Origin: a virus
UHGV virus genome: UHGV-0150809
Reading direction: 5' to 3' (one strand)
DNA length: 40,561 nt
Shown: positions 2,432-36,555 of the stretch, in pieces
How positions within the stretch are numbered: position 1 is the stretch's first letter
How the letters are laid out: each line of letters starts with the position of its first letter
The notes under the pieces: generated by a model
Databases searched by the model: none
Seen by the model: the letters and a program-made list of their open reading frames with translations, nothing else
What the model was told of the DNA's origin: nothing
Position numbers and translations under genes: made by a program

Positions 2432-3331
2432 TTACTTCATTCTGAAGACGCGTTGTGTCGTTGTTGTTTTGAATTTTTCGAATAACTCAGGGTGTACTGA
2501 CTGGAATAGCTTCTGGTCGAATCTGTTGCTGATCTGAGATTTCCATGTGCAGAGCGGCTTTCCGTCCAGGGTCAGGACTGAATGCTCTTGCATGTACATC
2601 TTCAGCTTCTCTTCTGATATAGCTATTTCTTCTTCCAGTGATTTTCTGCGTGACTTCATGTCTCGTAGATCGTTGAATAGTGCGAGTGCCTTTCCGTCAG
2701 CCTCGATACTTGTCCCGGCATCTTTCTCAAACATCAGCGATACATCGCTTACGCTGGTAGCTTCCGGCGGGTTAAGATTTTTCACTCGGTCCCAGAAAGC
2801 GATTTCTTTTTCTAAGATCGCCTGGATAGTTTCTTCATCACGCTCAACCCGATAGATTCGGAAGTCGTCGCCACCGATAAGCACACCGAAAACGCATACC
2901 TGTTTGTTTGTAACCATCAACCCATGCATGGCCTGGGCCGTGTAATGCACAGGAATTGCATCTGTCTGGATTTCTCCCCATTCTTTGGCTTTGAACGGGC
3001 TAACTGTTTTGATCTCAATGTTCTCTCCTGACGCTGCTTCTGCATCGATCTCAGCTGCAATAAAATCGTAATCACGGTGGATATAGCGGTTTCCGCGATG
3101 AACGATTTCCATCCCTGTTTCCTCAGAAAGCAGGTCTATTACGTATGGCTCCATACGCTGGCCACGCGTGAAAACTTTCTGCTTGCTTGGGTCTACTGGT
3201 TTGACACGTGGCTGGACCTTATCCAGATAAACCTCAAGCGGGGTGCGCCATGGGCTAATTCCAAGAATCCCTGCAACATCGCTTCCTCCGATGTATTTTC
3301 TTCTATCCATGATTCCAGCGTTCCGCATCAT
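2432..3331 (-). CDS. YqaJ/lambda-Exo-like phage recombination exonuclease
   Basis: 299 aa; N-terminal IGGSDVAGILGISPWRTPLEVY resembles the YqaJ viral recombinase nuclease domain; start ATGATG overlaps the stop of the upstream ORF (translational coupling). Confidence 0.75.
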   Translation of the reverse strand: MMRNAGIMDRRKYIGGSDVAGILGISPWRTPLEVYLDKVQPRVKPVDPSKQKVFTRGQRMEPYVIDLLSEETGMEIVHRGNRYIHRDYDFIAAEIDAEAASGENIEIKTVSPFKAKEWGEIQTDAIPVHYTAQAMHGLMVTNKQVCVFGVLIGGDDFRIYRVERDEETIQAILEKEIAFWDRVKNLNPPEATSVSDVSLMFEKDAGTSIEADGKALALFNDLRDMKSRRKSLEEEIAISEEKLKMYMQEHSVLTLDGKPLCTWKSQISNRFDQKLFQSVHPELFEKFKTTTTQRVFRMK

Positions 3332-3781: not shown

Positions 3782-3862
3782 TAATTTGTTACCTCGGTCT
3801 GTTACCGTTGAGGTAATGATTATGCGTATTTGGTTTGATGTCAATAGATATGAGTTAAAAAA

Positions 3863-3877
3863 ATTACCCATAAGGTA
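3863..3877. promoter_or_regulatory. Operator-like palindrome TTACCCATAAGGTAA at the leftward early promoter (OL-like)
   Basis: Perfect TTACC-N5-GGTAA inverted repeat between the repressor gene end and the first leftward early ORF. Confidence 0.45.
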
Positions 3878-3888
3878 ATCTTGATGGC

Positions 3889-3935: not shown

Positions 3936-4520
3936 TTATTGTTTATTTTTTTCGTTCTGGTTGATGACAAATTCAATGTAACTTTCGATCTTTGCTTTCT
4001 CGGTTTCGGGTAACAATGCGTAGCGCGAGCGGTCATAGTTGATGGTCGCAGGGTCGTGCGGGTGAATCAGTAATTCATAGCCGTGACGCCCGAATGCGGA
4101 TGCAACATTCTCCAGGGTGGAAATGGAAACGCTGACTTCATTGTTTAACAGGCGGCTGATTGTCACCTGGGCGACGCCGGATGCGCGGTGAAGTTTTCCT
4201 TGTGTTGAAAGGTCGCGGCTTTCGCTCATCCAGCGTTCCAGGTTGTGAGCCGCCAGCTGACCAATGTCGCTTGGTCCGACAGGCTGAAAACCCTCCTGAG
4301 AAAGCGAGCGATCGATATCAAGCCAGTTACGTGGTTTATTGGCGGCAGCTTCAATTTTTCGCGCAACCTGGTCGCCGATAACCTTCTTGCCAAGAGCCCA
4401 GCGGTTTACCAGATTTGCCTGAGTTCCAAGTTTTTCTGCCATCCGCGTCTGAACACCATTGAATTCACGGTCGATCAAGTCGTTGAGATTTTGCCTGCGG
4501 ACGTCCTGGATACTTTTCAT
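3936..4520 (-). CDS. Phage repressor (CI-like) with two tandem HTH domains and no S24/LexA-like autopeptidase domain
   Basis: 194 aa; N-terminal HTH (GVQTRMAEKLGTQANLVNRWALGKK) and second HTH (ASGVAQVTISRLLNNE); no Ala-Gly/Ser-Lys peptidase motifs; divergent from the cro-like gene with an operator cluster between. Confidence 0.7.
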   Translation of the reverse strand: MKSIQDVRRQNLNDLIDREFNGVQTRMAEKLGTQANLVNRWALGKKVIGDQVARKIEAAANKPRNWLDIDRSLSQEGFQPVGPSDIGQLAAHNLERWMSESRDLSTQGKLHRASGVAQVTISRLLNNEVSVSISTLENVASAFGRHGYELLIHPHDPATINYDRSRYALLPETEKAKIESYIEFVINQNEKNKQ

Positions 4521-4575: not shown

Positions 4576-4638
4576 TTACCCAACAGGTAAATGCACCTCA
4601 TAGGTAACTATCCTTGATTTTTGTTACCTTATGGGTGA
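4576..4638. promoter_or_regulatory. Tripartite operator cluster between repressor and cro (OR-like): 4576-4590 TTACCCAACAGGTAA, 4593-4607 GCACCTCATAGGTAA, 4624-4638 TTACCTTATGGGTGA
   Basis: Three adjacent copies of the palindrome seen directly in the divergent intergenic region; a TTGATT -35-like hexamer at 4614-4619 places the rightward promoter over the third site. Confidence 0.5.
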
Positions 4639-6906: not shown

Positions 6907-6983
6907 TTACCTTAGAGGTAATAAAATATTCTAAAATCTATTGATTTCGTGTCTTATGTGGTTTTTAATTACCTAAGGGGTAA
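6907..6983. promoter_or_regulatory. Two operator-like palindromes (6907-6921 TTACCTTAGAGGTAA; 6969-6983 TTACCTAAGGGGTAA) upstream of the gene at 6987
   Basis: Perfect TTACC-N5-GGTAA copies in the P-to-next-gene gap; the second overlaps the RBS. Confidence 0.4.
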
Positions 6984-11097: not shown

Positions 11098-11140
11098 GCA
11101 TGGTACTATTACCACAACGGTAACAATTACCACGGTGGTT

Positions 11141-11737
11141 ATGATGCCTGCTGAACCTAAAACCTATAAACGCAAATCAACGCAATTTAAGCCGCTCACA
11201 GCAATGCAGGAGGCTTATTGCCAGTCATACATCAAAACGCCTGAAAACCAGACTCAGGCTGCGATTAACGCAGGATTCTCCCCAAATACAGCGGCAGTTA
11301 AAGCCAGTGTCATGATGCGCGATGAACGCATTCAGAAACGGATTGCCGAGTTGATGGAGGAGCGCAACAAACGAATGCGTGTCAGTGCTGATTACGTTCT
11401 CATGCGCCTGGTGGAGATCGACCAGATGGACGTGATCGACATCCTCAACGACGATGGGAGCCTTAAACCAATCCGTGAGTGGCCGAAAATCTGGCGCACT
11501 ACGCTTAGTGGCTTTGATCTGTCATCGACCATCATGAACATGAACGAGGATTCAATAGAGACAATCCTCAAAAAAATTAAATGGCCTGACAAGGTGAAGA
11601 ACCTTGAGCTGATTGGTAAGCATGTTGATGTCAACGCATTCAAAGAACGTCTGGATGTTAATGTGAATGTGACAATTGCTGATCGCATAGCAGCAGCCAG
11701 GAAGCGACTCAAAGAACGTCAGGATGGTAATCAGTGA
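11141..11737 (+). CDS. Terminase small subunit
   Basis: Position immediately upstream of the large subunit with overlapping stop/start; ORF track 11063..11737 would begin inside the terminator hairpin, so the MMPAEPKTY start at 11141 is preferred. Confidence 0.55.
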   Translation: MMPAEPKTYKRKSTQFKPLTAMQEAYCQSYIKTPENQTQAAINAGFSPNTAAVKASVMMRDERIQKRIAELMEERNKRMRVSADYVLMRLVEIDQMDVIDILNDDGSLKPIREWPKIWRTTLSGFDLSSTIMNMNEDSIETILKKIKWPDKVKNLELIGKHVDVNAFKERLDVNVNVTIADRIAAARKRLKERQDGNQ

Positions 11738-13209
11738 CAGATACAGCGTTATCTCCTGAAGAGCAGTTAATCGAGGATATTGCAGGGTTCACTCACGATC
11801 CGCTTGGCTATGCCCTCTATGCGTTCCCGTGGGGGGAAGATGGGACTGAACTGGCACATGCCACCGGTCCACGTCAGTGGCAGGCTGATGCGTTCCGAGA
11901 GATACGTGATCACCTGCAGAATCCAGAGACGCGCTATCAGCCGCTTATGCTGGCACGCGCTTCGGGTCACGGTATTGGTAAATCCGCATTCATCTCAATG
12001 CTGATCAACTGGGGCATGTCCACTTGCGAGGATTGTAAGGTTGTGGTGACCGCCAACACCGACAACCAGCTACGAACGAAGACCTGGCCGGAAATTATCA
12101 AGTGGTCGAACCTTGCTATCACGAAAGACTGGTTTACCTGTACCGCTACCGCGATGTACAGCAATGATCCTGGACACGACAAGCGGTGGCGAGCTGACGC
12201 AATACCCTGGTCTGAGCACAACACTGAGGCATTCGCCGGACTACACAACGAGCGCAAACGCATCATCGTGGTATTCGATGAAGCGTCGAACATTGCGGAT
12301 CTGGTGTGGGAAGTTGCCGAGGGTGCGCTAACGGACGAAGACACTGAGATTATCTGGGTGGCGTTCGGAAACCCGACGCGTAATACCGGACGTTTCCGCG
12401 AATGTTTCCGCAAATATAAACACCGCTGGAAAACTGCGCAGATTGACAGCCGGACGGTGGAAGGCACCAACAAACAGCAGTTGCAGAAATGGGTTGATGA
12501 CTACGGGGAAGACAGCGACTTCGTTAAAATCCGTGTGCGCGGCATATTCCCGGATGCATCGGAATTGCAGTTTATCCCTACCGGACTTACTGACGAGGCA
12601 ATGAAACGGGTGGTCACCGCTGCGCAGGTTGCACATGCTCCGGTGATAATCGGCGTTGACCCGGCATACTCAGGCGTTGATGACGCTGTGATATACCTGC
12701 GGCAGGGGCTGCACAGTAAGGTGCTGTGGACTGGCAACAAGACCACTGACGATCTGATTATGGCAAAGCGTATCGCTGACTTTGAAGACCAGTATCAGGC
12801 TGACGCGGTGTTCATCGACTTCGGTTACGGAACCGGTTTGAAGTCAATCGGTGACGGATGGGGTCGTACATGGCAACTTGTTCCGTTCGGTGGCGCGTCT
12901 ACTGACCCGCAGATGCTCAACAAGCGTGGGGAGATGTTCAATTCATGCAAGACATGGCTGAGGCTGGGCGGCATGCTGGATGACCAGGAAACAGCGGACG
13001 ACCTGTCGGCGGCAGAGTACAAAGTTCGCGTGGACGGTAAAATCATTATCGAACAGAAGGAAGATATCAAGGAGCGGCTTGGGCGTTCTCCTGGTAAAGG
13101 CGATGCGCTACTGCTGACGTTTGCGTTCCCTGTGTCGAAGCGTCTGCGAATTCCCGGTCAGCAGAACCAGCAAGGCAAGGCCATCACAGATTACGATCCC
13201 TATGCTTAA
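11734..13209 (+). CDS. Terminase large subunit
   Basis: 491 aa; Walker-A-like ARASGHGIGKSAF, acidic ATPase motif IIVVFDEAS and C-terminal nuclease-like region; reported start is GTG overlapping the upstream stop. Confidence 0.8.
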   Translation: MTDTALSPEEQLIEDIAGFTHDPLGYALYAFPWGEDGTELAHATGPRQWQADAFREIRDHLQNPETRYQPLMLARASGHGIGKSAFISMLINWGMSTCEDCKVVVTANTDNQLRTKTWPEIIKWSNLAITKDWFTCTATAMYSNDPGHDKRWRADAIPWSEHNTEAFAGLHNERKRIIVVFDEASNIADLVWEVAEGALTDEDTEIIWVAFGNPTRNTGRFRECFRKYKHRWKTAQIDSRTVEGTNKQQLQKWVDDYGEDSDFVKIRVRGIFPDASELQFIPTGLTDEAMKRVVTAAQVAHAPVIIGVDPAYSGVDDAVIYLRQGLHSKVLWTGNKTTDDLIMAKRIADFEDQYQADAVFIDFGYGTGLKSIGDGWGRTWQLVPFGGASTDPQMLNKRGEMFNSCKTWLRLGGMLDDQETADDLSAAEYKVRVDGKIIIEQKEDIKERLGRSPGKGDALLLTFAFPVSKRLRIPGQQNQQGKAITDYDPYA

Positions 13210-13259
13210 TCCGCTGGTGGGGATAATGTCGTTGATATCCTCTGATGAGGATAAAACAA

Positions 13260-13295
13260 AGCCAGCTCATCGGCTGGCTGTTTGTGACATGTCAC
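13260..13295. repeat. Hairpin (AGCCAGC-tcatcg-GCTGGCT) plus GTGACATGTCAC palindrome copy 2 (13284-13295), between convergent genes
   Basis: Read directly from sequence. Confidence 0.55.
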
Positions 13296-13299
13296 TGCG

Positions 13300-13722
13300 T
13301 TAGAAGGTTATTTTATCGAATGCGGCGTTGATTGCCTTGGCGTCCTGCTCAGCACCAACCACATCAAGTAAAGATCTTTTACTAAGCACTTCAGCCAGGC
13401 ATTGTAACTTCATGTTGTATAAGTTTTCGCGCATGTAATCATCATCACTTTTTTCTTTGGCGTATACAGAGCGAGAAATATCAAACACATCGCCTTTTTC
13501 CATTTCAGAACGTTGTGCTGTTATCCAGTCATGGAACGTAACGCTAGTACCATGGTCTTCGCTAAGAGTTAACCCGGTCAGTCCCTCACTCTGAATTACT
13601 TCGTAATGCATTTCATTACCAGCAAAAACGCCATAAAAAACGCAGTCTTCAGCCTGAACGATACGAGAATATTTTAATGGCCATTCATTTAGATACTTAG
13701 CCAACATATCAATTGTCTTCAT
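13300..13722 (-). CDS. Hypothetical moron protein (140 aa), inverted inside the late operon
   Basis: Opposite strand to the flanking late genes; AAGGTGAGA RBS; visibly AT-richer than neighbours; no recognisable motif. Confidence 0.5.
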   Translation of the reverse strand: MKTIDMLAKYLNEWPLKYSRIVQAEDCVFYGVFAGNEMHYEVIQSEGLTGLTLSEDHGTSVTFHDWITAQRSEMEKGDVFDISRSVYAKEKSDDDYMRENLYNMKLQCLAEVLSKRSLLDVVGAEQDAKAINAAFDKITF

Positions 13723-13920
13723 AATCTCACCTTAAAAAAATGCCCGGCGAACCGGGCGAACTGGAAGCAATGAGTTATGCCTTCCGTGGCTGTACTGGTT
13801 TACAGCATGAAGTCATCGCAATGGCGTCCTGCTGTAAAAAGGGCGGTGATAGTCCTTCAAGGGAAACCATCACCGCCAAGCCCCTGGAACTTCTGGCATC
13901 ACGGTCCTTAGGCGTGATTC

Positions 13921-13997
13921 TGGCGTGGCATGCAGGATTCGAACCTGCGACCAACCGCTTAGAAGGCGGTTGCTCTGTCCAACTGAGCTAATGCCAC
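13921..13997 (-). tRNA. tRNA-Arg (anticodon UCU), argU-like
   Basis: Reverse complement folds as a 77-nt cloverleaf: acceptor GTGGCAT/ATGCCAC, D-arm GCTC-AGTTGGACA-GAGC, anticodon loop CTTCTAA, T-arm GCAGG-TTCGAAT-CCTGC, discriminator G and encoded CCA. Confidence 0.8.
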
Positions 13998-14319
13998 AAC
14001 GCTGAGAGCACTTAGCCTGTTAAGGCACCACACTTTGTCGCGGCTCCATAAATGCTCTCATCGTTGTACCCTCGTCTCTTCCGAGGCGTCACACCGAATC
14101 GCCGGGATGGTGAATCCCCGTGCGCGGAATAAAACCGCTCGACTTGCACATTCCGGCTACCTGGTTCGTTTGCCCGAGCAAGGGAGGGTGCCCCTTAAAC
14201 GTATCCAGACCGCTATCGTCGCATGTGCCATACGCCGTACTGCTCAAAATAAAAGCTCACTCCACCTGTTCAATTTAACGACAAGCCAGTCAGGTTAGTA
14301 ACCGGAATGAACTCTTTAG

Positions 14320-14334
14320 TTACCTGAAAGGTAA
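14320..14334. promoter_or_regulatory. Operator-like palindrome TTACCTGAAAGGTAA
   Basis: Perfect copy of the motif in the noncoding region between the tRNA and the connector gene. Confidence 0.4.
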
Positions 14335-14424
14335 TAATTCGCGCGTTAAATGTCAACTATCTACGATAAATAAATCATATGTGGTTAAATTGGTAATAAT
14401 TTAATTGCGTACGGAGTCATTGAT

Positions 14425-14631
14425 ATGTGCATGGGTAGCTCACCATCAGTGCCTGCAACACCAGAAGTTCAGGCAGCACCACAGGAGCAGGATGCTGCCG
14501 TTGTTGATGCCCGCGACGAAGAAACACGTCGCCGTCGCGCTGCTGCTGGTCGTAGTTCTACGCTGCTTACCGGTTCTCAGGGCGACACATCAACCGCTAA
14601 TACCAGCGGTAAAACGCTGCTTGGTCAGTAA
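14425..14631 (+). CDS. Small low-complexity ORF upstream of the connector gene
   Basis: 68 aa; ACGGAG RBS-like sequence 8 nt upstream; Ala/Arg/Thr-rich; an alternative overlapping frame (14405..14644) exists, so coding status is uncertain. Confidence 0.3.
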   Translation: MCMGSSPSVPATPEVQAAPQEQDAAVVDARDEETRRRRAAAGRSSTLLTGSQGDTSTANTSGKTLLGQ

Positions 14632-14645
14632 CCGGAGTCATTGAA

Positions 14646-16325
14646 ATGGCGGAAACAACTAAAGAGCGATTGAACAAACAGTTCGCACAACTTGAAAGCG
14701 AGCGTCAGTCGTTCGAGCCGCACTGGCGCGAGTTGAGTGATTACATCAACCCGCGTGGTTCCCGCTTTCTGACTTCTGAGGCCAACCGTAACGATCGGCG
14801 CAATACACGCATTATTGATTCGACCGGGACTATGGCGGCGCGCACTCTCGCCAGCGGCATGATGTCAGGCATCACAAGCCCCGCGCGTCCGTGGTTTCGC
14901 CTGGCTACGCCAGATCCTGAAATGATGGATTATGGCCCTGTTAAGTTGTGGCTTGAGGCAGTTCAGAACCGCATGAACGATATGTTCAATAAGTCGAATC
15001 TCTACCAGTCTCTTCCGCAGTTATACGGAAGCCTCGGCACATACAGCACTGGTGCAATGGCAGTGCTGGAGGATGACGAGGACATCATTCGCACAATGCC
15101 ATTCCCGATAGGCAGTTACTACCTGGCTAACTCACCTCGTGGCAGTGTTGACACCTGTTTTCGCAAGTTCTCTATGACTGTTCGTCAGCTTGTTCAGGAG
15201 TTCGGGCTAAATAACGTCAGCGAATCCGTAAAAAGCATGTGGGAAAGCGGCACCTACGAGAAGTGGATCGAAGTGAGGCATTCGGTTTACCCGAACATTG
15301 ACCGCGATACATCGAAGCTGGATAGCAAGAACAAGCCATTCAAATCGGTTTATTACGAGGTTGGTGGAGATAACGACAAGTTGTTGCGTGAGTCCGGATT
15401 CGATGAGTTTCCAATTATGGCTCCGCGCTGGGAAGTTAACGGCGAAGATGTTTATGGATCATCATGCCCGGGTATGCTGGCGCTTGGACCTGTTAAGGCA
15501 TTGCAGCTTCTCCAGAAGCGCAAGTCGCAGTTGATTGATAAAGCCACCAATCCGCCGATGGTTGCTCCGACTTCCCTCAAGAATCAGCGCGCCTCCCTTC
15601 TTCCTGGCGACATCACGTATATCGATCAGATTACTGGTCAGGATGGCTTCAGGCCTGCTTATCTGGTTAACCCCAGTACAGCAGATTTGGTGGCAGACAT
15701 TCAGGACACTCGTCAAATCATTAACAGCGCCTACTTTGTCGATCTGTTCATGATGTTGCAGAACATCAATACCCGCTCGATGCCTGTTGAAGCGGTGATC
15801 GAAATGAAAGAAGAAAAACTTCTGATGTTGGGGCCGGTTCTGGAGCGTCTGAACGACGAATGTCTTAATCCTCTCATTGACCGCGCTTTCTCGATGATGG
15901 TGCGCAAAAACATGCTGCCGCCACCGCCTGACGCGATGGAAGGCATGCCCCTGAAGGTCGAATACATTTCCGTCATGGCTCAGGCGCAGAAGTCTATCGG
16001 CCTGTCCAGTCTGGCGTCCACGGTTAACTTCATTGGTCAACTTGCGCAAGCGAAACCAGAAGCTCTCGACAAACTCAACGTTGATCAGGCGATCGATGCA
16101 TTCGCTGATATGTCCGGAGTGTCTCCAACCGTCATTGTTCCGCAGGAACAGGTTGAGCAGGCTCGCCAGCAACGGGCACAGCAACAACAGCAGCAACAAA
16201 TGATGGCGATGGGGATGGCGGCGGCACAGGGGGCCAAGACGCTAAGCGAAGCTAAAACTTCGGATCCGAGTGTGTTGTCAGCTATGGCGAATGCAGTTAG
16301 TGGTCAGGGTGGGCAATCACAATGA
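14646..16325 (+). CDS. Head-to-tail connector (portal), T7 gp8-like
   Basis: 559 aa; GGAG RBS; N-terminal ARTLASGMMSGITSPARPWFRLAT and Gln/Met/Ala-rich C-terminus (QQQQQQQMMAMGMAAAQGA) parallel T7 gp8 as recalled. Confidence 0.8.
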   Translation: MAETTKERLNKQFAQLESERQSFEPHWRELSDYINPRGSRFLTSEANRNDRRNTRIIDSTGTMAARTLASGMMSGITSPARPWFRLATPDPEMMDYGPVKLWLEAVQNRMNDMFNKSNLYQSLPQLYGSLGTYSTGAMAVLEDDEDIIRTMPFPIGSYYLANSPRGSVDTCFRKFSMTVRQLVQEFGLNNVSESVKSMWESGTYEKWIEVRHSVYPNIDRDTSKLDSKNKPFKSVYYEVGGDNDKLLRESGFDEFPIMAPRWEVNGEDVYGSSCPGMLALGPVKALQLLQKRKSQLIDKATNPPMVAPTSLKNQRASLLPGDITYIDQITGQDGFRPAYLVNPSTADLVADIQDTRQIINSAYFVDLFMMLQNINTRSMPVEAVIEMKEEKLLMLGPVLERLNDECLNPLIDRAFSMMVRKNMLPPPPDAMEGMPLKVEYISVMAQAQKSIGLSSLASTVNFIGQLAQAKPEALDKLNVDQAIDAFADMSGVSPTVIVPQEQVEQARQQRAQQQQQQQMMAMGMAAAQGAKTLSEAKTSDPSVLSAMANAVSGQGGQSQ

Positions 16326-19196: not shown

Positions 19197-19526
19197 GTGT
19201 ATATGGAACTCGTAAACCTCAAAACCGGCACTGACAGCTACCAGGATGAGAGCGGAGAAACCAGAACTCGCGATGAATACCCGTGGGAGCTGTGCATCAC
19301 TCTTAATAACGACACATTGAATAAGCTGAAGGCGCAACCTCAGGGCGTCGGAACAGAAGTGATGATAACTGCAAAGGCTGTTATTCGAGGCCTGTCTGCC
19401 AGAGAAACTGACGATGGTGTTAATCGCAGCGCCGATCTGCAGATCACTGATATGGCGATCGCTCCTGTTTCCAGGGATGTAGAAAAATCAGCGGCTGAAA
19501 CTCTGTACGGTAACGGAGGTGAGTGA
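19197..19526 (+). CDS. Hypothetical virion-module protein
   Basis: 109-aa ORF with AGGAG RBS. Confidence 0.45.
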   Translation: MYMELVNLKTGTDSYQDESGETRTRDEYPWELCITLNNDTLNKLKAQPQGVGTEVMITAKAVIRGLSARETDDGVNRSADLQITDMAIAPVSRDVEKSAAETLYGNGGE

Positions 19527-32466: not shown

Positions 32467-32574
32467 TTACCGCAAAGGTAATGATAAACGCGAAGAAATA
32501 TTAAAATCAACCGTATTTGGTTGATTGCGTTTAACGCTTGATCACCTGAAAGCAAGATATTACCTTTAAGGTAA
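32467..32574. promoter_or_regulatory. Two operator-like palindromes (32467-32481 TTACCGCAAAGGTAA; 32560-32574 TTACCTTTAAGGTAA) in the divergent region between the antirepressor and the zinc-ribbon gene
   Basis: Perfect motif copies; a weaker copy TCACCTGAAAGCAAG lies between them. Confidence 0.45.
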
Positions 32575-33798: not shown

Positions 33799-36555
33799 AT
33801 GACGGTCTCAACCGAAGTTGACCACAACGAATACACTGGTAACGGCGCTACGACATCATTTCCGTATACCTTCCGTATTTTCAAAAAATCCGACCTGGTT
33901 GTTCAGGTGTCTGACCTGAACGGGAACGTAACAGAATTGGTTCTGGATACCGGTTATACGGTAACTGGGGCGGGCACTTATAGTGGCGGTTCTGTTGTTC
34001 TTCCGTCTCCGCTTGCTGCTGGATGGCGAATTACGATAGATCGTGTGCTTGATGTAGTGCAGGAGACAGACCTTCGCAATCAGGGTAAATTTTTCCCCGA
34101 AGTGCATGAAGATGCTTTTGACTACCTGACGATGCTGATCCAGCAATGTTTTGGGTGGTTCAGACGTGCATTGATGAAACCATCTTTGCTTGCAAAATAT
34201 TACGATGCAAAGCAAAACAGAATATCTAACCTTGCTGATCCATCACTTGAGCAGGACGCTGTAAATAATCGCTCAATGCGTAATTATGTCGATGCTGCAA
34301 TCGCCGGAGTTATTGGTGGTTTTGGTTGGTTTATTCAGTATGGTTCTGGAGCAGTATACCGAACGTTCCAGGATAAGATGCGGGATAACGTTAACGCTCT
34401 TGATTTTGTTCCGTTTGAGCAAAGATATGCTGCATTAAATTTTGAAGTTGATGCGTCTGAATGGTTAATTAATGCGATAAATTCTGGTGCAAGTGTCGTT
34501 AGAATACCTGCAGGTAAATGGATGATTTCTAAGAATATAGATGTGCCTCCTGGAGTTTCATTAATTGGTGATGGAATTGATTACTGGGATACATATAGAC
34601 CAGCGCCTGAAAGATTATTAAAAAGTTGGAGTAAAGGAACCCATCTTGTATTTACTGGTGATGGAGAAAAAAACAAATATTTTTTTAACATCTCTAATGA
34701 AAGACCAGTTAAAATTGTTGAAGGGATATCTTGTAAGTTCACTGAGTTTACAAATGAAGATTCTGTAGGTGTTACTCCTGCTACACCAAAAGCCATGAGC
34801 GTAGCTGTTAGTATCAACAGGGCATCACAGTTACGCAATCTGAGAATAATGGTAAGTAAAAATGGTATTGAAGGATACAATAACCCTGATTCTTATTCAT
34901 TGGGTGATAACTGGGATATAGGGTTGCATGTATACGATAGCTGTGATTCAGTTATTGATAACGTACAGATTGTCGGCTATTGGAGGGTAAAAGGACTACT
35001 ACTGACAGAAAATGACGGGAGCCTTTCAATGAAGGGAAATCCTGAAAAAACGCACTTTAATAACGTTTATGTCCAGTCAGGGATCGCGATAAGGAATAGC
35101 CCTCAGATTGATCTTGTAAGTAATACTGAAAGCTCAGTGACATTTAAACATAAAAAGTCGATGAGAATAACTTCAGTTAAACAGTTTAAAATTGCTGGCA
35201 GTGAATCAGTATATACGTATTCAGATGCATCATTTGATGGAGCTAACATCACACTATCTGGTATTTCTCCTGAAATACAAGGTACAATAAGTGTAATCAG
35301 GTTTCCGTCAATTGGTAATAATTTTAGCGGGACTGTTTTTGAGAATACAGTAGCCACTACTCTTGATCATACATCAGGTAAGCCATCAGAATACTTTGGC
35401 CTTCCTGCATCCTTTGCATTAGAGGTTGATGGTTTCCCTGTTCGTAATTTAAGGTTTGATAAATTCAAAGCTCAAACAACATTTGATAAAGGAAATTGCA
35501 TTTTTGGTGATTGCCGTGATGTTAAAATAACATCATCTGAGTTTGAAAATGGAATTATGATTGCGTATAACCAGACCGAGACTCAGGGTTATACAGGAAA
35601 TCTTAGATTTTTTGCTTCTGATCTTCAGAGCAGCGTTAACACAAGTGAGTTTAAACCAAGAGACGCATTTGTAGACAATAGACAAATAAAAACGGAGTTT
35701 ACTGATGGTTCGTTCATTATAAAGAACTGGAGGCCTACAGATACAAAAATACAATGGTCGTCTGGAGCAGATGCTATTGTTCTTAGAGAGTCACCTGACG
35801 AACAATCAGACGGAAATATTTACGGGTATCACATTGATGGTAAAAGATGGATTAATGTTAGTGGATATAACAAAGATATAAATATTTCATCAAGAAACTT
35901 AAGCGTAAAAAACCATGGTGATGACTCTGCAGTTATTAATATATTCGGCGACTCTGGAAATATTGCCATTAAAGGTAATTTTTCACCAATTATTGATAAC
36001 AGCAAATCTCTTGGTGCACCATCATTTAGATGGGCACAGGTTTATTCTGCGAACGGTTCGATAAACACATCAGATGGTAGAGAAAAAAGTGAACCGATTA
36101 GTACAAGTGAGCTCAGCTTGTATATGTCTCGTGGTTATGAAGGTGATGCAATTCTGGATGCATGGGGAGATATCAGGATTGTAGCTTTTCGCTGGCTTGA
36201 TGCCGTCAGGGAAAAGGGAGATGGTGCCCGCTGGCATTTTGGTGTTATAGCACAACAAGTGAGAGACACTTTCCTCGCGCATGGGATTGATGGAACCAGA
36301 TTTGGCCTTCTCTGTTACGATGAATGGGATGATAAATACGCGCCAGTGATGGCGGTAAGGATGATCACTAAAGTTGTGGATGGCGTCGAAATTGAGATGG
36401 AAGAAGAATACGAAACAGAAGAGCGAACTCTGGTTTGCAAGGCTGGAAATAGGTGGGGTATCCGTACTGACCAGTGTTTATGGCTTGAGTCAGCTTATTT
36501 GCGTAGAAGAATCGAAAAAATAGAATCACGTCTTGCAATGCTTGAAAGTAGCTAA
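33799..36555 (+). CDS. Tail fibre/tailspike: T7 gp17-like N-terminal adaptor, AT-rich central receptor-binding/enzymatic region, C-terminal S74 intramolecular chaperone domain
   Basis: 918 aa; N-terminus NEYTGNGATTSFPYTFRIFKKSDLVV parallels the T7 fibre N-terminus; C-terminus contains the SDGREKS cleavage-site-like motif and following chaperone domain; central part visibly AT-richer. Confidence 0.75.
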   Translation: MTVSTEVDHNEYTGNGATTSFPYTFRIFKKSDLVVQVSDLNGNVTELVLDTGYTVTGAGTYSGGSVVLPSPLAAGWRITIDRVLDVVQETDLRNQGKFFPEVHEDAFDYLTMLIQQCFGWFRRALMKPSLLAKYYDAKQNRISNLADPSLEQDAVNNRSMRNYVDAAIAGVIGGFGWFIQYGSGAVYRTFQDKMRDNVNALDFVPFEQRYAALNFEVDASEWLINAINSGASVVRIPAGKWMISKNIDVPPGVSLIGDGIDYWDTYRPAPERLLKSWSKGTHLVFTGDGEKNKYFFNISNERPVKIVEGISCKFTEFTNEDSVGVTPATPKAMSVAVSINRASQLRNLRIMVSKNGIEGYNNPDSYSLGDNWDIGLHVYDSCDSVIDNVQIVGYWRVKGLLLTENDGSLSMKGNPEKTHFNNVYVQSGIAIRNSPQIDLVSNTESSVTFKHKKSMRITSVKQFKIAGSESVYTYSDASFDGANITLSGISPEIQGTISVIRFPSIGNNFSGTVFENTVATTLDHTSGKPSEYFGLPASFALEVDGFPVRNLRFDKFKAQTTFDKGNCIFGDCRDVKITSSEFENGIMIAYNQTETQGYTGNLRFFASDLQSSVNTSEFKPRDAFVDNRQIKTEFTDGSFIIKNWRPTDTKIQWSSGADAIVLRESPDEQSDGNIYGYHIDGKRWINVSGYNKDINISSRNLSVKNHGDDSAVINIFGDSGNIAIKGNFSPIIDNSKSLGAPSFRWAQVYSANGSINTSDGREKSEPISTSELSLYMSRGYEGDAILDAWGDIRIVAFRWLDAVREKGDGARWHFGVIAQQVRDTFLAHGIDGTRFGLLCYDEWDDKYAPVMAVRMITKVVDGVEIEMEEEYETEERTLVCKAGNRWGIRTDQCLWLESAYLRRRIEKIESRLAMLESS

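Follow-up and report, generated by a model that had tools for sequence, protein, structure and literature searches.

UHGV virus genome UHGV-0150809, a stretch of 40,561 nucleotides (nt) that was analysed at its full length and is called the window here, is that of a phiV10/epsilon15-like Uetakevirus, a genus of temperate podoviruses. Between its terminase and connector genes the late operon is interrupted by a group of features read leftward, i.e. from the minus strand, and these include a large conserved structured RNA (hereafter the element, or the core where its most conserved part is meant), a gene for a transfer RNA (tRNA), two terminators and an open reading frame (ORF) of 140 amino acids (aa), ORF140. 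Escherichia phages HEMP4 and PAS61 match the segment 13200-14450 from end to end with 95% identity, whereas phiV10 and the O157 typing phages match two thirds of it with 98% identity. An initial annotation, made from the letters of the sequence, had recorded here an inverted AT-rich moron, a tRNA-Arg(UCU) with two hairpins, an unexplained noncoding stretch and a copy of a repressor operator, and all of these features lie where it put them. The same interruption is found in phiV10, PAS61, epsilon15 and in Enterobacter and Klebsiella prophages; judged by these genomes, it is a conserved feature of the genus rather than a one-off insertion. The region amounts to more than a tRNA and a moron, namely to a conserved regulatory RNA module absent from current databases. 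From right to left, which is the direction in which the module reads, the following features were placed:

14646: start of the portal gene (ORF list)
14425: start of a gp3-like gene of 68 aa (ORF list)
14328-14356, minus strand: putative sigma-70 promoter, with a -35 box TTGACA at 14356-14351, a 17-nt spacer and a -10 box TACCTT at 14333-14328 (read from the sequence)
14320-14334, no strand assigned: repressor operator TTACC-N5-GGTAA, here the perfect motif TTACCTGAAAGGTAA, covering the -10 box and the predicted start site of the leftward promoter
14243-14319, minus strand: 5′ leader, from the predicted start site to the RNA core, with a block GTCGTTAAAT..GGTGGAGTG.GCTTT kept among Uetakeviruses
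14066-14242, minus strand: conserved structured RNA core of about 177 nt, with four helices and two pseudoknots (covariance model R1)
13997-14066, minus strand: helix D, CAACGAUGAGAGCA (14066-14053) with UGCUCUCAGCGUUG (14010-13997), around a variable insert (14052-14011)
13921-13997, minus strand: tRNA-Arg(UCU) with an encoded CCA (ARAGORN; Rfam RF00005)
13898-13918, minus strand: hairpin F, AUCACG-CCUAAGGAC-CGUGAU
13833-13877, minus strand: terminator T1, GGCGGUGAUGG...CUAUCACCGCC then CUUUUUAC (terminator scan)
13758-13832, minus strand: spacer between T1 and T2, CAG.ACGCCAUUGCGAUGAC...GGAAGGCA..UUGCUUCCAGUU
13735-13757, minus strand: terminator T2, GCCCGGUUCGCCGGGC then AUUUUUUU, abutting the ribosome-binding site of ORF140 (terminator scan)
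13733-13726 (approximately), minus strand: ribosome-binding site AAGGUGAG of ORF140
13722-13300, minus strand: ORF140, 140 aa (ORF list)
13260-13279, no strand assigned: hairpin in the gap between ORF140 and the convergent gene for the terminase large subunit, resembling a terminator on the minus strand (terminator scan)
13209: end of the terminase large-subunit gene (ORF list)

The noncoding stretch has a GC content of 0.54-0.57 at 14000-14240 and of about 0.40 at 14240-14420. The initial annotation had suggested that it could hold a small RNA or a regulatory element, and it does hold a large conserved structured RNA. Specifically, a pattern taken from the most conserved block retrieved 120 stretches from IMG/VR, which gave 95 distinct sequences, and in the aligned representatives invariant blocks (about 60 near-invariant positions) lie between hairpins that vary in sequence and in length. 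The covariance model R1, built on the 164 positions of the core, has a single match in the window, at 14242-14066 (149 bits, E 3e-40); it also matches all 100 of the 100 tested IMG/VR loci carrying the seed pattern (117-171 bits), as well as mEp390, Stenotrophomonas phage BUCT708 and Klebsiella phage SopranoGao (116-156 bits). The proposed structure has the following parts in the window:

14237-14233 with 14221-14217, minus strand: helix P1
14228-14223 with 14151-14146, minus strand: pseudoknot PK1
14209-14206 with 14163-14160, minus strand: helix P2, which closes a variable hairpin
14118-14115 with 14107-14104, minus strand: helix P3
14112-14109 (loop CACC) with 14095-14092 (GGUG), minus strand: pseudoknot PK2
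14086-14082 with 14074-14070, minus strand: hairpin hp3, with a conserved loop GAAGAGA

Imposed on 66 distinct sequences, this structure gives standard pairs in 98.7% of cells, against 30-42% in a control in which the 3′ partners were slid by 1-3 columns. Ten pairs of the core change on both sides, spread over P1, P2, P3, PK2 and hp3: columns 10 and 22 of P1 are GC in 48 sequences and AU in 18, columns 36 and 86 of P2 are UA in 48 and CG in 18, and columns 142 and 162 of PK2 are CG in 45 and AU in 21, with three covarying pairs in P3 and four in hp3, the loop of which is invariant. PK1 (GCACAU with AUGUGC) does not vary, so that covariation neither supports nor refutes it. Frequent G-U pairs assign the RNA to the minus strand of the window, and the length of the core ranges among loci from 154 to 183 nt, with differences that are not multiples of three. 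On this comparative evidence, the core is a real structured RNA of the minus strand. The structure is visible by comparison only, since the folding of a single sequence (a 303-nt stretch) is no more stable than that of its shuffles (z = -0.3). Two sets of long-range pairings put forward by RNAalifold (7-9 with 106-108 and 24-26 with 94-96) were rejected, as they show no changes on both sides and are broken in mEp390; the local hairpin P1 covaries and these alternatives do not, and P1 with its pseudoknot is therefore preferred.

The Rfam search that the initial annotation had proposed recovered the tRNA but no other family of Rfam 15, riboswitch families included, in 13000-14800 at E values up to 1; in four relatives there was no match at the core at E values up to 0.1. 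The annotation pipeline PGAP leaves the element unannotated in E. coli genomes, and a literature search by sequence string returned nothing relevant, although an earlier mention (e.g. by King et al. 2011, on put RNAs) is possible. The core is an RNA family listed in neither Rfam nor annotation pipelines.

Beyond the core, the element continues into helix D, the duplexes of which have energies of -18 to -28 kcal/mol (shuffled sequences average -7 to -12), and for which relatives carry compensatory variants, e.g. GGAAAAGGCG/CGCCGUUUCC and GGUAAGGGUG/CAUCCUUACC. Relatives without a tRNA have a variable domain of 80-130 nt, domain E, closed by a helix GUUGUGG/CCACAAC. This domain is replaced by the tRNA-Arg in the window and in several other loci (the arrangement of element and tRNA-Arg also occurs in L008, L099, L118 and L260), where the acceptor stem GUGGCAU/AUGCCAC occupies the position of the E helix; the last G of helix D is at the same time the first base of the tRNA. 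Hairpin F follows the tRNA here, and follows the CCACAAC strand in tRNA-less Uetakevirus-type and some lambdoid relatives (L030, L041, L064, L082).

The core is not confined to the genus. With 13985-14420 as the query of a distant blastn search, Uetakeviruses match over the full length, the lambdoid phages mEp460, cdtI and 2H10 and the Shiga toxin (Stx) 2c phages over a 245-nt block (82-84%), and P1, P7, D6, SJ46 and RCS47 over a 163-nt block (77-81%), with weaker matches in Klebsiella, Enterobacter, Salmonella and Stenotrophomonas phages. The core is present in 1071 of 5426 complete E. coli genomes (about 20%), at 977 chromosomal and 276 plasmid places, and is annotated in none of them; it is absent from CPS-53 of E. 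coli K-12. Across phages of Escherichia, Klebsiella, Kosakonia and Stenotrophomonas it is near-invariant, as would be expected if its target in the host, RNA polymerase for example, were conserved. A scan of genome contigs with a 15-base pattern gave almost exclusively chance matches and under-samples the taxonomic range; 2 of 80 loci from it were verified by the model, in Kosakonia sacchari and Escherichia whittamii. For 13921-13997, matches of 80-90% identity were noted in 64 Synechococcus phage records; they presumably fall on the tRNA-Arg, which would then be a widely shared type of phage tRNA.

In nearly all of these genomes the core lies directly downstream of a repressor-controlled early promoter. 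In Uetakeviruses it begins 25-95 nt downstream of a promoter overlapped by an operator, and in mEp460 and an annotated E. coli prophage it comes right after the gene for a LexA-like repressor and a PL-type promoter, on the strand of the early-left operon and before yfdP, yfdQ and yfdR. The XD35 prophage has a PL-like promoter (TTGACA-16-CATAAT) ahead of the core, and in mEp390 and BUCT708 the core is found just past the repressor gene and a PL-like promoter; in the Stenotrophomonas phage the order is promoter, element, GC-rich hairpin with U7, first ORF. In phage P1 the element lies between trnI (tRNA-Ile) and ban, within the C1-controlled ban operon. More specifically (L004, 769-870 and 2911-3179), it directly follows trnI, the leader of the ban operon has an annotated dicF-like region, and the 287 nt from trnI to ban are otherwise without annotation in the phage P1 record. 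Just downstream of the element in BUCT708 (L251, 2631-2750, plus strand) RprA is matched below threshold (50 bits, with a gathering score of 70; E 9e-4), in a segment that includes the strong terminator at 2724-2740.

In the window, the promoter that would serve the element is the putative one at 14328-14356. A simple consensus scan does not call it, and its assignment draws on geometry: the same spacing from -35 box to operator (TTGAYN, 16 nt, TTACCT) recurs at the operator at 32560 (plus strand) and is kept at the leftward promoter of other Uetakeviruses. On the plus strand, no comparable -35 box lies upstream of the operator at 14320, and for these two reasons the operator at 14320-14334 is assigned to the leftward promoter. 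The operator motif occurs 15 times in the window with at most one mismatch, against 0.63 expected, and 0 of 100 shuffles reached 15 copies; the epsilon15 record has annotated ‘repressor’ binding sites at the equivalent place. By these sequence features, the leftward promoter would be shut off by the helix-turn-helix repressor encoded at 3936-4520. A comparison of the upstream regions of 30 representatives gives lengths of about 25 to about 95 nt for the 5′ leader in relatives.

The operator copies of the window (3802-3878, 4576-4638, 4961, 6907-6983, 11109-11141, 14320, 31426, 32467-32574, 33680 and 36909) precede most operons, with two tandem copies just upstream of the start of the terminase small subunit, and therefore the prophage repressor seems to control many promoters directly, late ones included, like C1 in phage P1, rather than one immunity region. 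Between the leftward promoter and the divergent gp3 and portal genes there is an AT-rich block (14357-14424; on the minus strand AATTAAATTATTACCAATTTAACCACATATGATTTATTTATCGTAG) that is almost invariant in Uetakeviruses of different genera and may hold a rightward late promoter or an activator site.

Downstream of the core, the two hairpins that the initial annotation had ascribed to the tRNA are both present, one as a minus-strand stem at 13757-13742 (GCCCGGTTCGCCGGGC, then the U-run ATTTTTTT) and the other as a long inverted repeat at 13877-13842 (minus strand; 14 pairs, then CTTTTTAC), which is itself terminator-like. They are not merely hairpins of the tRNA but constitute the conserved terminators of the module, T2 and T1, the latter of which also follows the RNA in relatives without a tRNA. 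A T1-like structure (GGCGG...ACCGCC with a U run) is found after the core in 22 of 22 Uetakevirus-type loci, 49 of 57 lambdoid and other loci and 0 of 16 phage P1-type loci, so that 71 of the 79 loci not of the phage P1 type have a conserved terminator between the core and the first gene. The stem of T1 covaries, and it folds at -18 to -30 kcal/mol. An equivalent of T2 (a hairpin with U7 before the cargo gene) occurs in epsilon15, where it is annotated as a rho-independent terminator, in other Uetakeviruses and in the Stenotrophomonas phage, and the spacer between T1 and T2 is kept in epsilon15 and other Uetakeviruses.

The reading that accounts best for this arrangement, to which we would give a little less than an even chance, is that the core is a cis-acting, put-like processive antiterminator, without its being filed as a member of the put family. 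The region would then be a single unit, transcribed leftward and kept silent by the prophage repressor. Upon derepression, E. coli RNA polymerase would start near 14320 and transcribe first the large structured leader, i.e. the core (14242-14066) and then helix D. The nascent core would fold and act in cis on the polymerase transcribing it, on which it would confer resistance to termination in the manner of the put RNAs of HK022 and HK639; the polymerase would then continue through the tRNA-Arg(UCU) gene and read through both T1 and T2, which would allow expression of a variable cargo, here ORF140. RNase P, together with 3′ processing, would excise the tRNA from this transcript, and the tRNA would supply the decoding of AGA. 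The sequences show the anatomy of the unit, an RNA that is conserved and covaries, its constant placement behind early promoters and ahead of terminators, and a signature like that of put; we infer the activity of the promoter, the co-transcription of the parts, the binding of polymerase and the read-through of T1 and T2.

What points to such a mechanism is above all the fixed order of repressor-controlled promoter, RNA, intrinsic terminator(s) and genes, which has the logic of processive antitermination. The PL-proximal slot of the core is the slot of putL in HK022, HK639, UPF_BP1, phiEt88 and CobraSix, and that of nutL-N in lambda. The early-left operon of the prophage annotated by PGAP has no gene labelled as N-like, and none was found among 10 early proteins of the window, a check that was not exhaustive, and Casjens and colleagues have raised the possibility that N-less lambdoid phages use a put-like RNA (PMC12315714). 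The element thus resembles put in being encoded in cis just downstream of a repressor-controlled early promoter, with no N gene found and with terminators to pass. There is also a resemblance in detail. In put, A9, the helix C10-G14/C30-G34 with its G12.U32 wobble and a CAUG bulge with the essential U28 are followed by residues 59-64 (CGGCAA), the centre of the interface with polymerase (PMC9378689). Helix P1 of the element reads A-CGGCG...CAUG-CGUCG, with a G.U wobble at the same position, and after it come, in the same order, (A/G)GCGG, a stem and GG(C)AAU. The first hairpin of either RNA has a loop that joins a second helix, formed with the 5′ end in put and with the 3′ AUGUGC in the element. 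A pattern derived from put, ACGGCGN{5,15}CATGCGTCG, finds among 255 loci only put loci, element loci and one unchecked locus from the genome scan (L245), and a degenerate version occurs once in the window against 0.04 expected. For put, the action in cis passes through the zinc-binding domain of the RNA polymerase beta' subunit and suppresses pausing and termination; the element is proposed to act on polymerase in a similar way.

Several observations weigh against a put-like antiterminator. At the sequence level, homology between the element and put is statistically undetectable: R1 does not match HK022 or HK639; a covariance model of put built from 7 putL sequences, R2, does not match the element in the window or in relatives at E values up to 10; nhmmer gives a non-significant result; and blastn-short is negative. 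The comparison of signatures was made post hoc, and G35 of put is not conserved in the element, which has U, C or A at this position. In architecture, put consists of two adjacent stem-loops of about 70 nt, whereas the core has about 165 nt, four helices and two H-type pseudoknots, and the element reaches about 450 nt when D, E, F and T1 are counted; the partner strand of the 3′ GUGC is found within the loop of helix P1; and, unlike put, the element also occurs in non-lambdoid phages (Uetakeviruses and P1-like phages). No second copy of the kind of putR was found by R1 in the window, and each genome region examined has one copy. The phage P1-type copies lack T1, with no terminator seen before ban, and T1 could be no more than the 3′ end of a discrete noncoding RNA gene. 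Finally, most of the core, the tRNA and half of T1 have been deleted from epsilon15, which keeps T2 and the cargo gene; it follows that epsilon15 can do without the RNA.

In that phage (L005, 2782-3170; compare L030, 2054-2353), the first ~50 nt of the core are followed by a jump to the 3′ half of T1. The junction falls within a repeat of ~13 nt, UUCCCUUGAUGCU, which sister phages carry both in the apical hairpin of P2 and in the loop of T1, and the deletion seems to have arisen between these short repeats; a UCCUUG-like motif is also present in the P2 apical and T1 loops of other members. Elsewhere in the window, R2 has a weak match in a late gene (19321-19390, plus strand; 11.8 bits, E 0.25), which is probably due to chance.

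It is possible, if somewhat doubtful, that the core belongs to a new class of large, structured RNAs, encoded by phages of six or more genera, with an activity other than put-like antitermination. An RNA freed by RNase P and acting in trans, or a switch of early phage transcription that senses a ligand or tRNA, are possibilities within this reading.

The first of these can be formulated more specifically, and as formulated we regard it as unlikely: the element would be a discrete gene for a trans-acting noncoding RNA, whose product is the transcript of about 490 nt from the promoter to T1. In this version, a cut by RNase P at the tRNA or E helix would free a stable RNA of about 250-320 nt (core plus D) that binds, sequesters or modifies a conserved host component (a protein, the ribosome or a defence factor), with the downstream genes expressed by leak-through. 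The closing of the module by T1 in the 71 loci mentioned above speaks for it, as do the tertiary-looking core, with its two pseudoknots and near-invariant positions, and the placement of either a tRNA or a 7-bp E helix with CAA/CCA-like bases exactly at the 3′ edge of helix D. The last of these recalls the C4 and CI RNAs of P1 and P4, which are processed by RNase P. Like C4 of P1 and P7 and CI of P4 (Rfam C4, RF01695), the element is a structured phage RNA of early or immunity transcripts for which release by RNase P would be possible; unlike the element, those RNAs are antisense regulators of 77-90 nt, they have no similarity to it in sequence or by model, and C4 and isrK occur in the right operon of a relative and not at the element. 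Against a trans-acting RNA gene there is the lambdoid early-left operon, which lies wholly beyond T1 and for which efficient termination would be costly, as well as the phage P1-type copies, without T1 and inside the ban operon, and the fact that no candidate target is known. The E. coli XD35 prophage, which has the element at PL, encodes C4 antisense RNA (82.8 bits) and isrK (63.7 bits) in its right operon (L129 1775-1963, minus strand).

A further model is lambda N/nut, together with the antitermination of rrn operons, and the core has been weighed as a giant, protein-dependent site of this kind, in which hp3, UGCUCUCA (boxA-like) and GUUGUGG (boxC-like) recruit Nus factors and/or an N-like protein. 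We consider this quite improbable. The likeness consists in the position in the PL leader, the invariant hp3 loop GAAGAGA, which contains the lambda nutL boxB loop GAAGA on a covarying stem, the boxA-like UGCUCU and the boxC-like UGUGG; the 3′ strand of helix D reads UGCUCUCAGCGUUGUGG, and L069 and L022 have a perfect or near-perfect rrn-type boxA, GCTCTTTAACAA, after the core and a hairpin. In contrast to lambda nut, however, the boxA-like stretch is buried in a helix of 13-14 bp and covaries away in relatives (e.g. to CGCCGUUUCC and CAUCCUUACC), and the element greatly exceeds any nut site in size; the annotated prophage operon and the 10 early proteins of the window showed no N-like gene, and one N protein is unlikely to be common to P1, Uetakeviruses and a Stenotrophomonas siphovirus.

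A sensor leader, i.e. a riboswitch or attenuator whose core binds a metabolite, a tRNA or another signal and sets termination at T1 and T2 according to host physiology, is very unlikely. Conserved nucleotides in junctions and pseudoknots next to variable peripheral hairpins do have the look of an aptamer, and terminators follow downstream. In most loci, however, T1 lies 140-260 nt past the core, no alternative pairing between core and T1 was seen (their loop motifs are similar and not complementary), the phage P1-type copies have no terminator, and no riboswitch family was matched.

Hardly any more credit can be given, and if anything a shade less, to a cassette for processing or stability, which would protect the 5′ end of the early transcript or direct tRNA maturation and leave polymerase unaffected. 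Here it is relevant that tRNAs adjoin the element, a tRNA-Arg on its 3′ side in the window and in the four loci named above and a tRNA-Ile on its 5′ side in phage P1, and that the epsilon15 record has an RNase III site in the intergenic region, on the opposite (rightward) strand; yet most members have no tRNA nearby, and the conservation of sequence across genera exceeds what a simple 5′ stabiliser needs.

That the element is no RNA at all but a protein-coding remnant or a DNA site (a recombination boundary or an origin), a reading encouraged by database ORFs that overlie it and by the role of the module as a hot spot of cargo exchange, is almost certainly wrong and was rejected, given substitutions that keep base pairs (strand-specific G-U included), core lengths that differ by non-multiples of three, the lack of a conserved ORF and the course of one such ORF, phiV10p04, antisense through the tRNA. 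The ORFs concerned, phiV10p04, mEp460 gp37 and mEp390_036, overlie the tRNA (in antisense) or the structured RNA (window 13740-13991, plus strand; L001 2672-2923; L003 2934-3302; L253 2511-2753) and are almost certainly spurious annotations.

For RNA-only processive antitermination in enteric phages, only one small family is known, put of HK022 and HK639. If the core is a put-like antiterminator, control of polymerase by RNA would be a common strategy of temperate phages (lambdoid, P1-like, epsilon15-like and Stenotrophomonas phages), the expression of the early-left operon in N-less lambdoid phages would be explained, and a second, larger RNA architecture would become available for structural work on RNA polymerase. 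If its function is a different one, there is still a large structured RNA, highly conserved, in bacteria that have been studied very thoroughly. In either case, (i) a conserved slot of promoter, RNA, terminator and cargo is defined, at which accessory genes and tRNAs are exchanged, (ii) spurious ORF annotations are flagged and (iii) an RNA family missing from Rfam and annotation pipelines is pointed out.

The tRNA-Arg(UCU) of the initial annotation is called by ARAGORN, as the only tRNA of the window, and by Rfam (73.3 bits against a gathering score of 29, E 1e-15). Like the argO/argN-type tRNAs of Stx phages, it has a canonical cloverleaf, the anticodon UCU and an encoded CCA, and it belongs to a phage whose genes often use AGA; unlike them, it forms part of a larger conserved RNA module, in which it takes the position of a structural domain. 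E. coli uses AGA roughly 2 times per 1000 codons. The suggestion that the tRNA supplies the decoding of this rare codon is plausible, as a count over 43 phage ORFs gives 8.3 AGA (and 4.4 AGG) per 1000 codons, several-fold above the host value, so that a UCU tRNA may well be useful. AGA is concentrated in several genes, with a maximum for the window in a gene of 918 aa (33799-36555, plus strand; 21 AGA, about 23 per 1000, and 10 AGG). Being encoded upstream of T1, the tRNA would be made with or without read-through of the terminators. The terminase, the portal and several genes of the head region have no AGA at all.

The leftward AT-rich ORF of the initial annotation, ORF140, has a GC content of 0.40-0.41 against 0.52-0.57 in its flanks. 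The profile search proposed for its product gave phrog_4846 (6.5e-92), a family of ‘unknown function’, but no match in Pfam or PADLOC; its 103 homologues are all ‘hypothetical’, and the AlphaFold2 model is poor (predicted local distance difference test score, pLDDT, 63; predicted template modelling score, pTM, 0.37) and too uncertain for a comparison of folds. In prophages of Enterobacter and Klebsiella, homologues with 40-54% identity stand in this slot too, behind the same RNA, whether a tRNA is present or not. In phiV10 and epsilon15 the slot holds a different cargo, a gene of the N4 gp49/Sf6 gp66 family, and in other loci it has other ORFs or none, inserted after T1 or after T2; in L041, for instance, the insertion of a cargo ORF falls right behind T1, where the spacer starts.

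The label ‘moron’ is apt in some respects. Like a moron, the cargo gene is AT-rich, deviating in GC content, swappable, flanked by terminators and placed between essential late genes. It is doubtful in others, since no promoter of its own was found for ORF140 and the only promoter-like sequence upstream on its strand is the one overlapped by the operator, with two terminators in between. Two terminators and a repressed promoter upstream argue against the classic, moron-type expression in the lysogen, which is unlikely here, and from its placement ORF140 looks lytic or early rather than lysogen-expressed. At the place of the hairpin beyond ORF140 (13260-13279), the phiV10 record has a rho-independent terminator on the plus strand.

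In lambdoid PL leaders (L003, ~2700-2960, minus strand; L015, L032, L053, L082 and L099), a second module follows T1, with a D-like helix (e.g. AACAGAGAAGAGCA/UGUUCUUCUCUGUU or CAACUGAAAGCGCG/CGCGCUUCCAAUUG) ending in UUGUGGAGAA and then further hairpins, so that about 700-800 nt of structured leader precede the first gene. Conversely, in L069 (3329-3400) and L022 the core comes without D, E, F and T1 and is followed by a hairpin and the perfect or near-perfect rrn-type boxA (TGCTCTTTAACAA); this hairpin also reads as the terminator of a convergent gene for a membrane protein of 152 aa. Part of the PL leader of L069 seems to be duplicated further downstream (~4021-4227).

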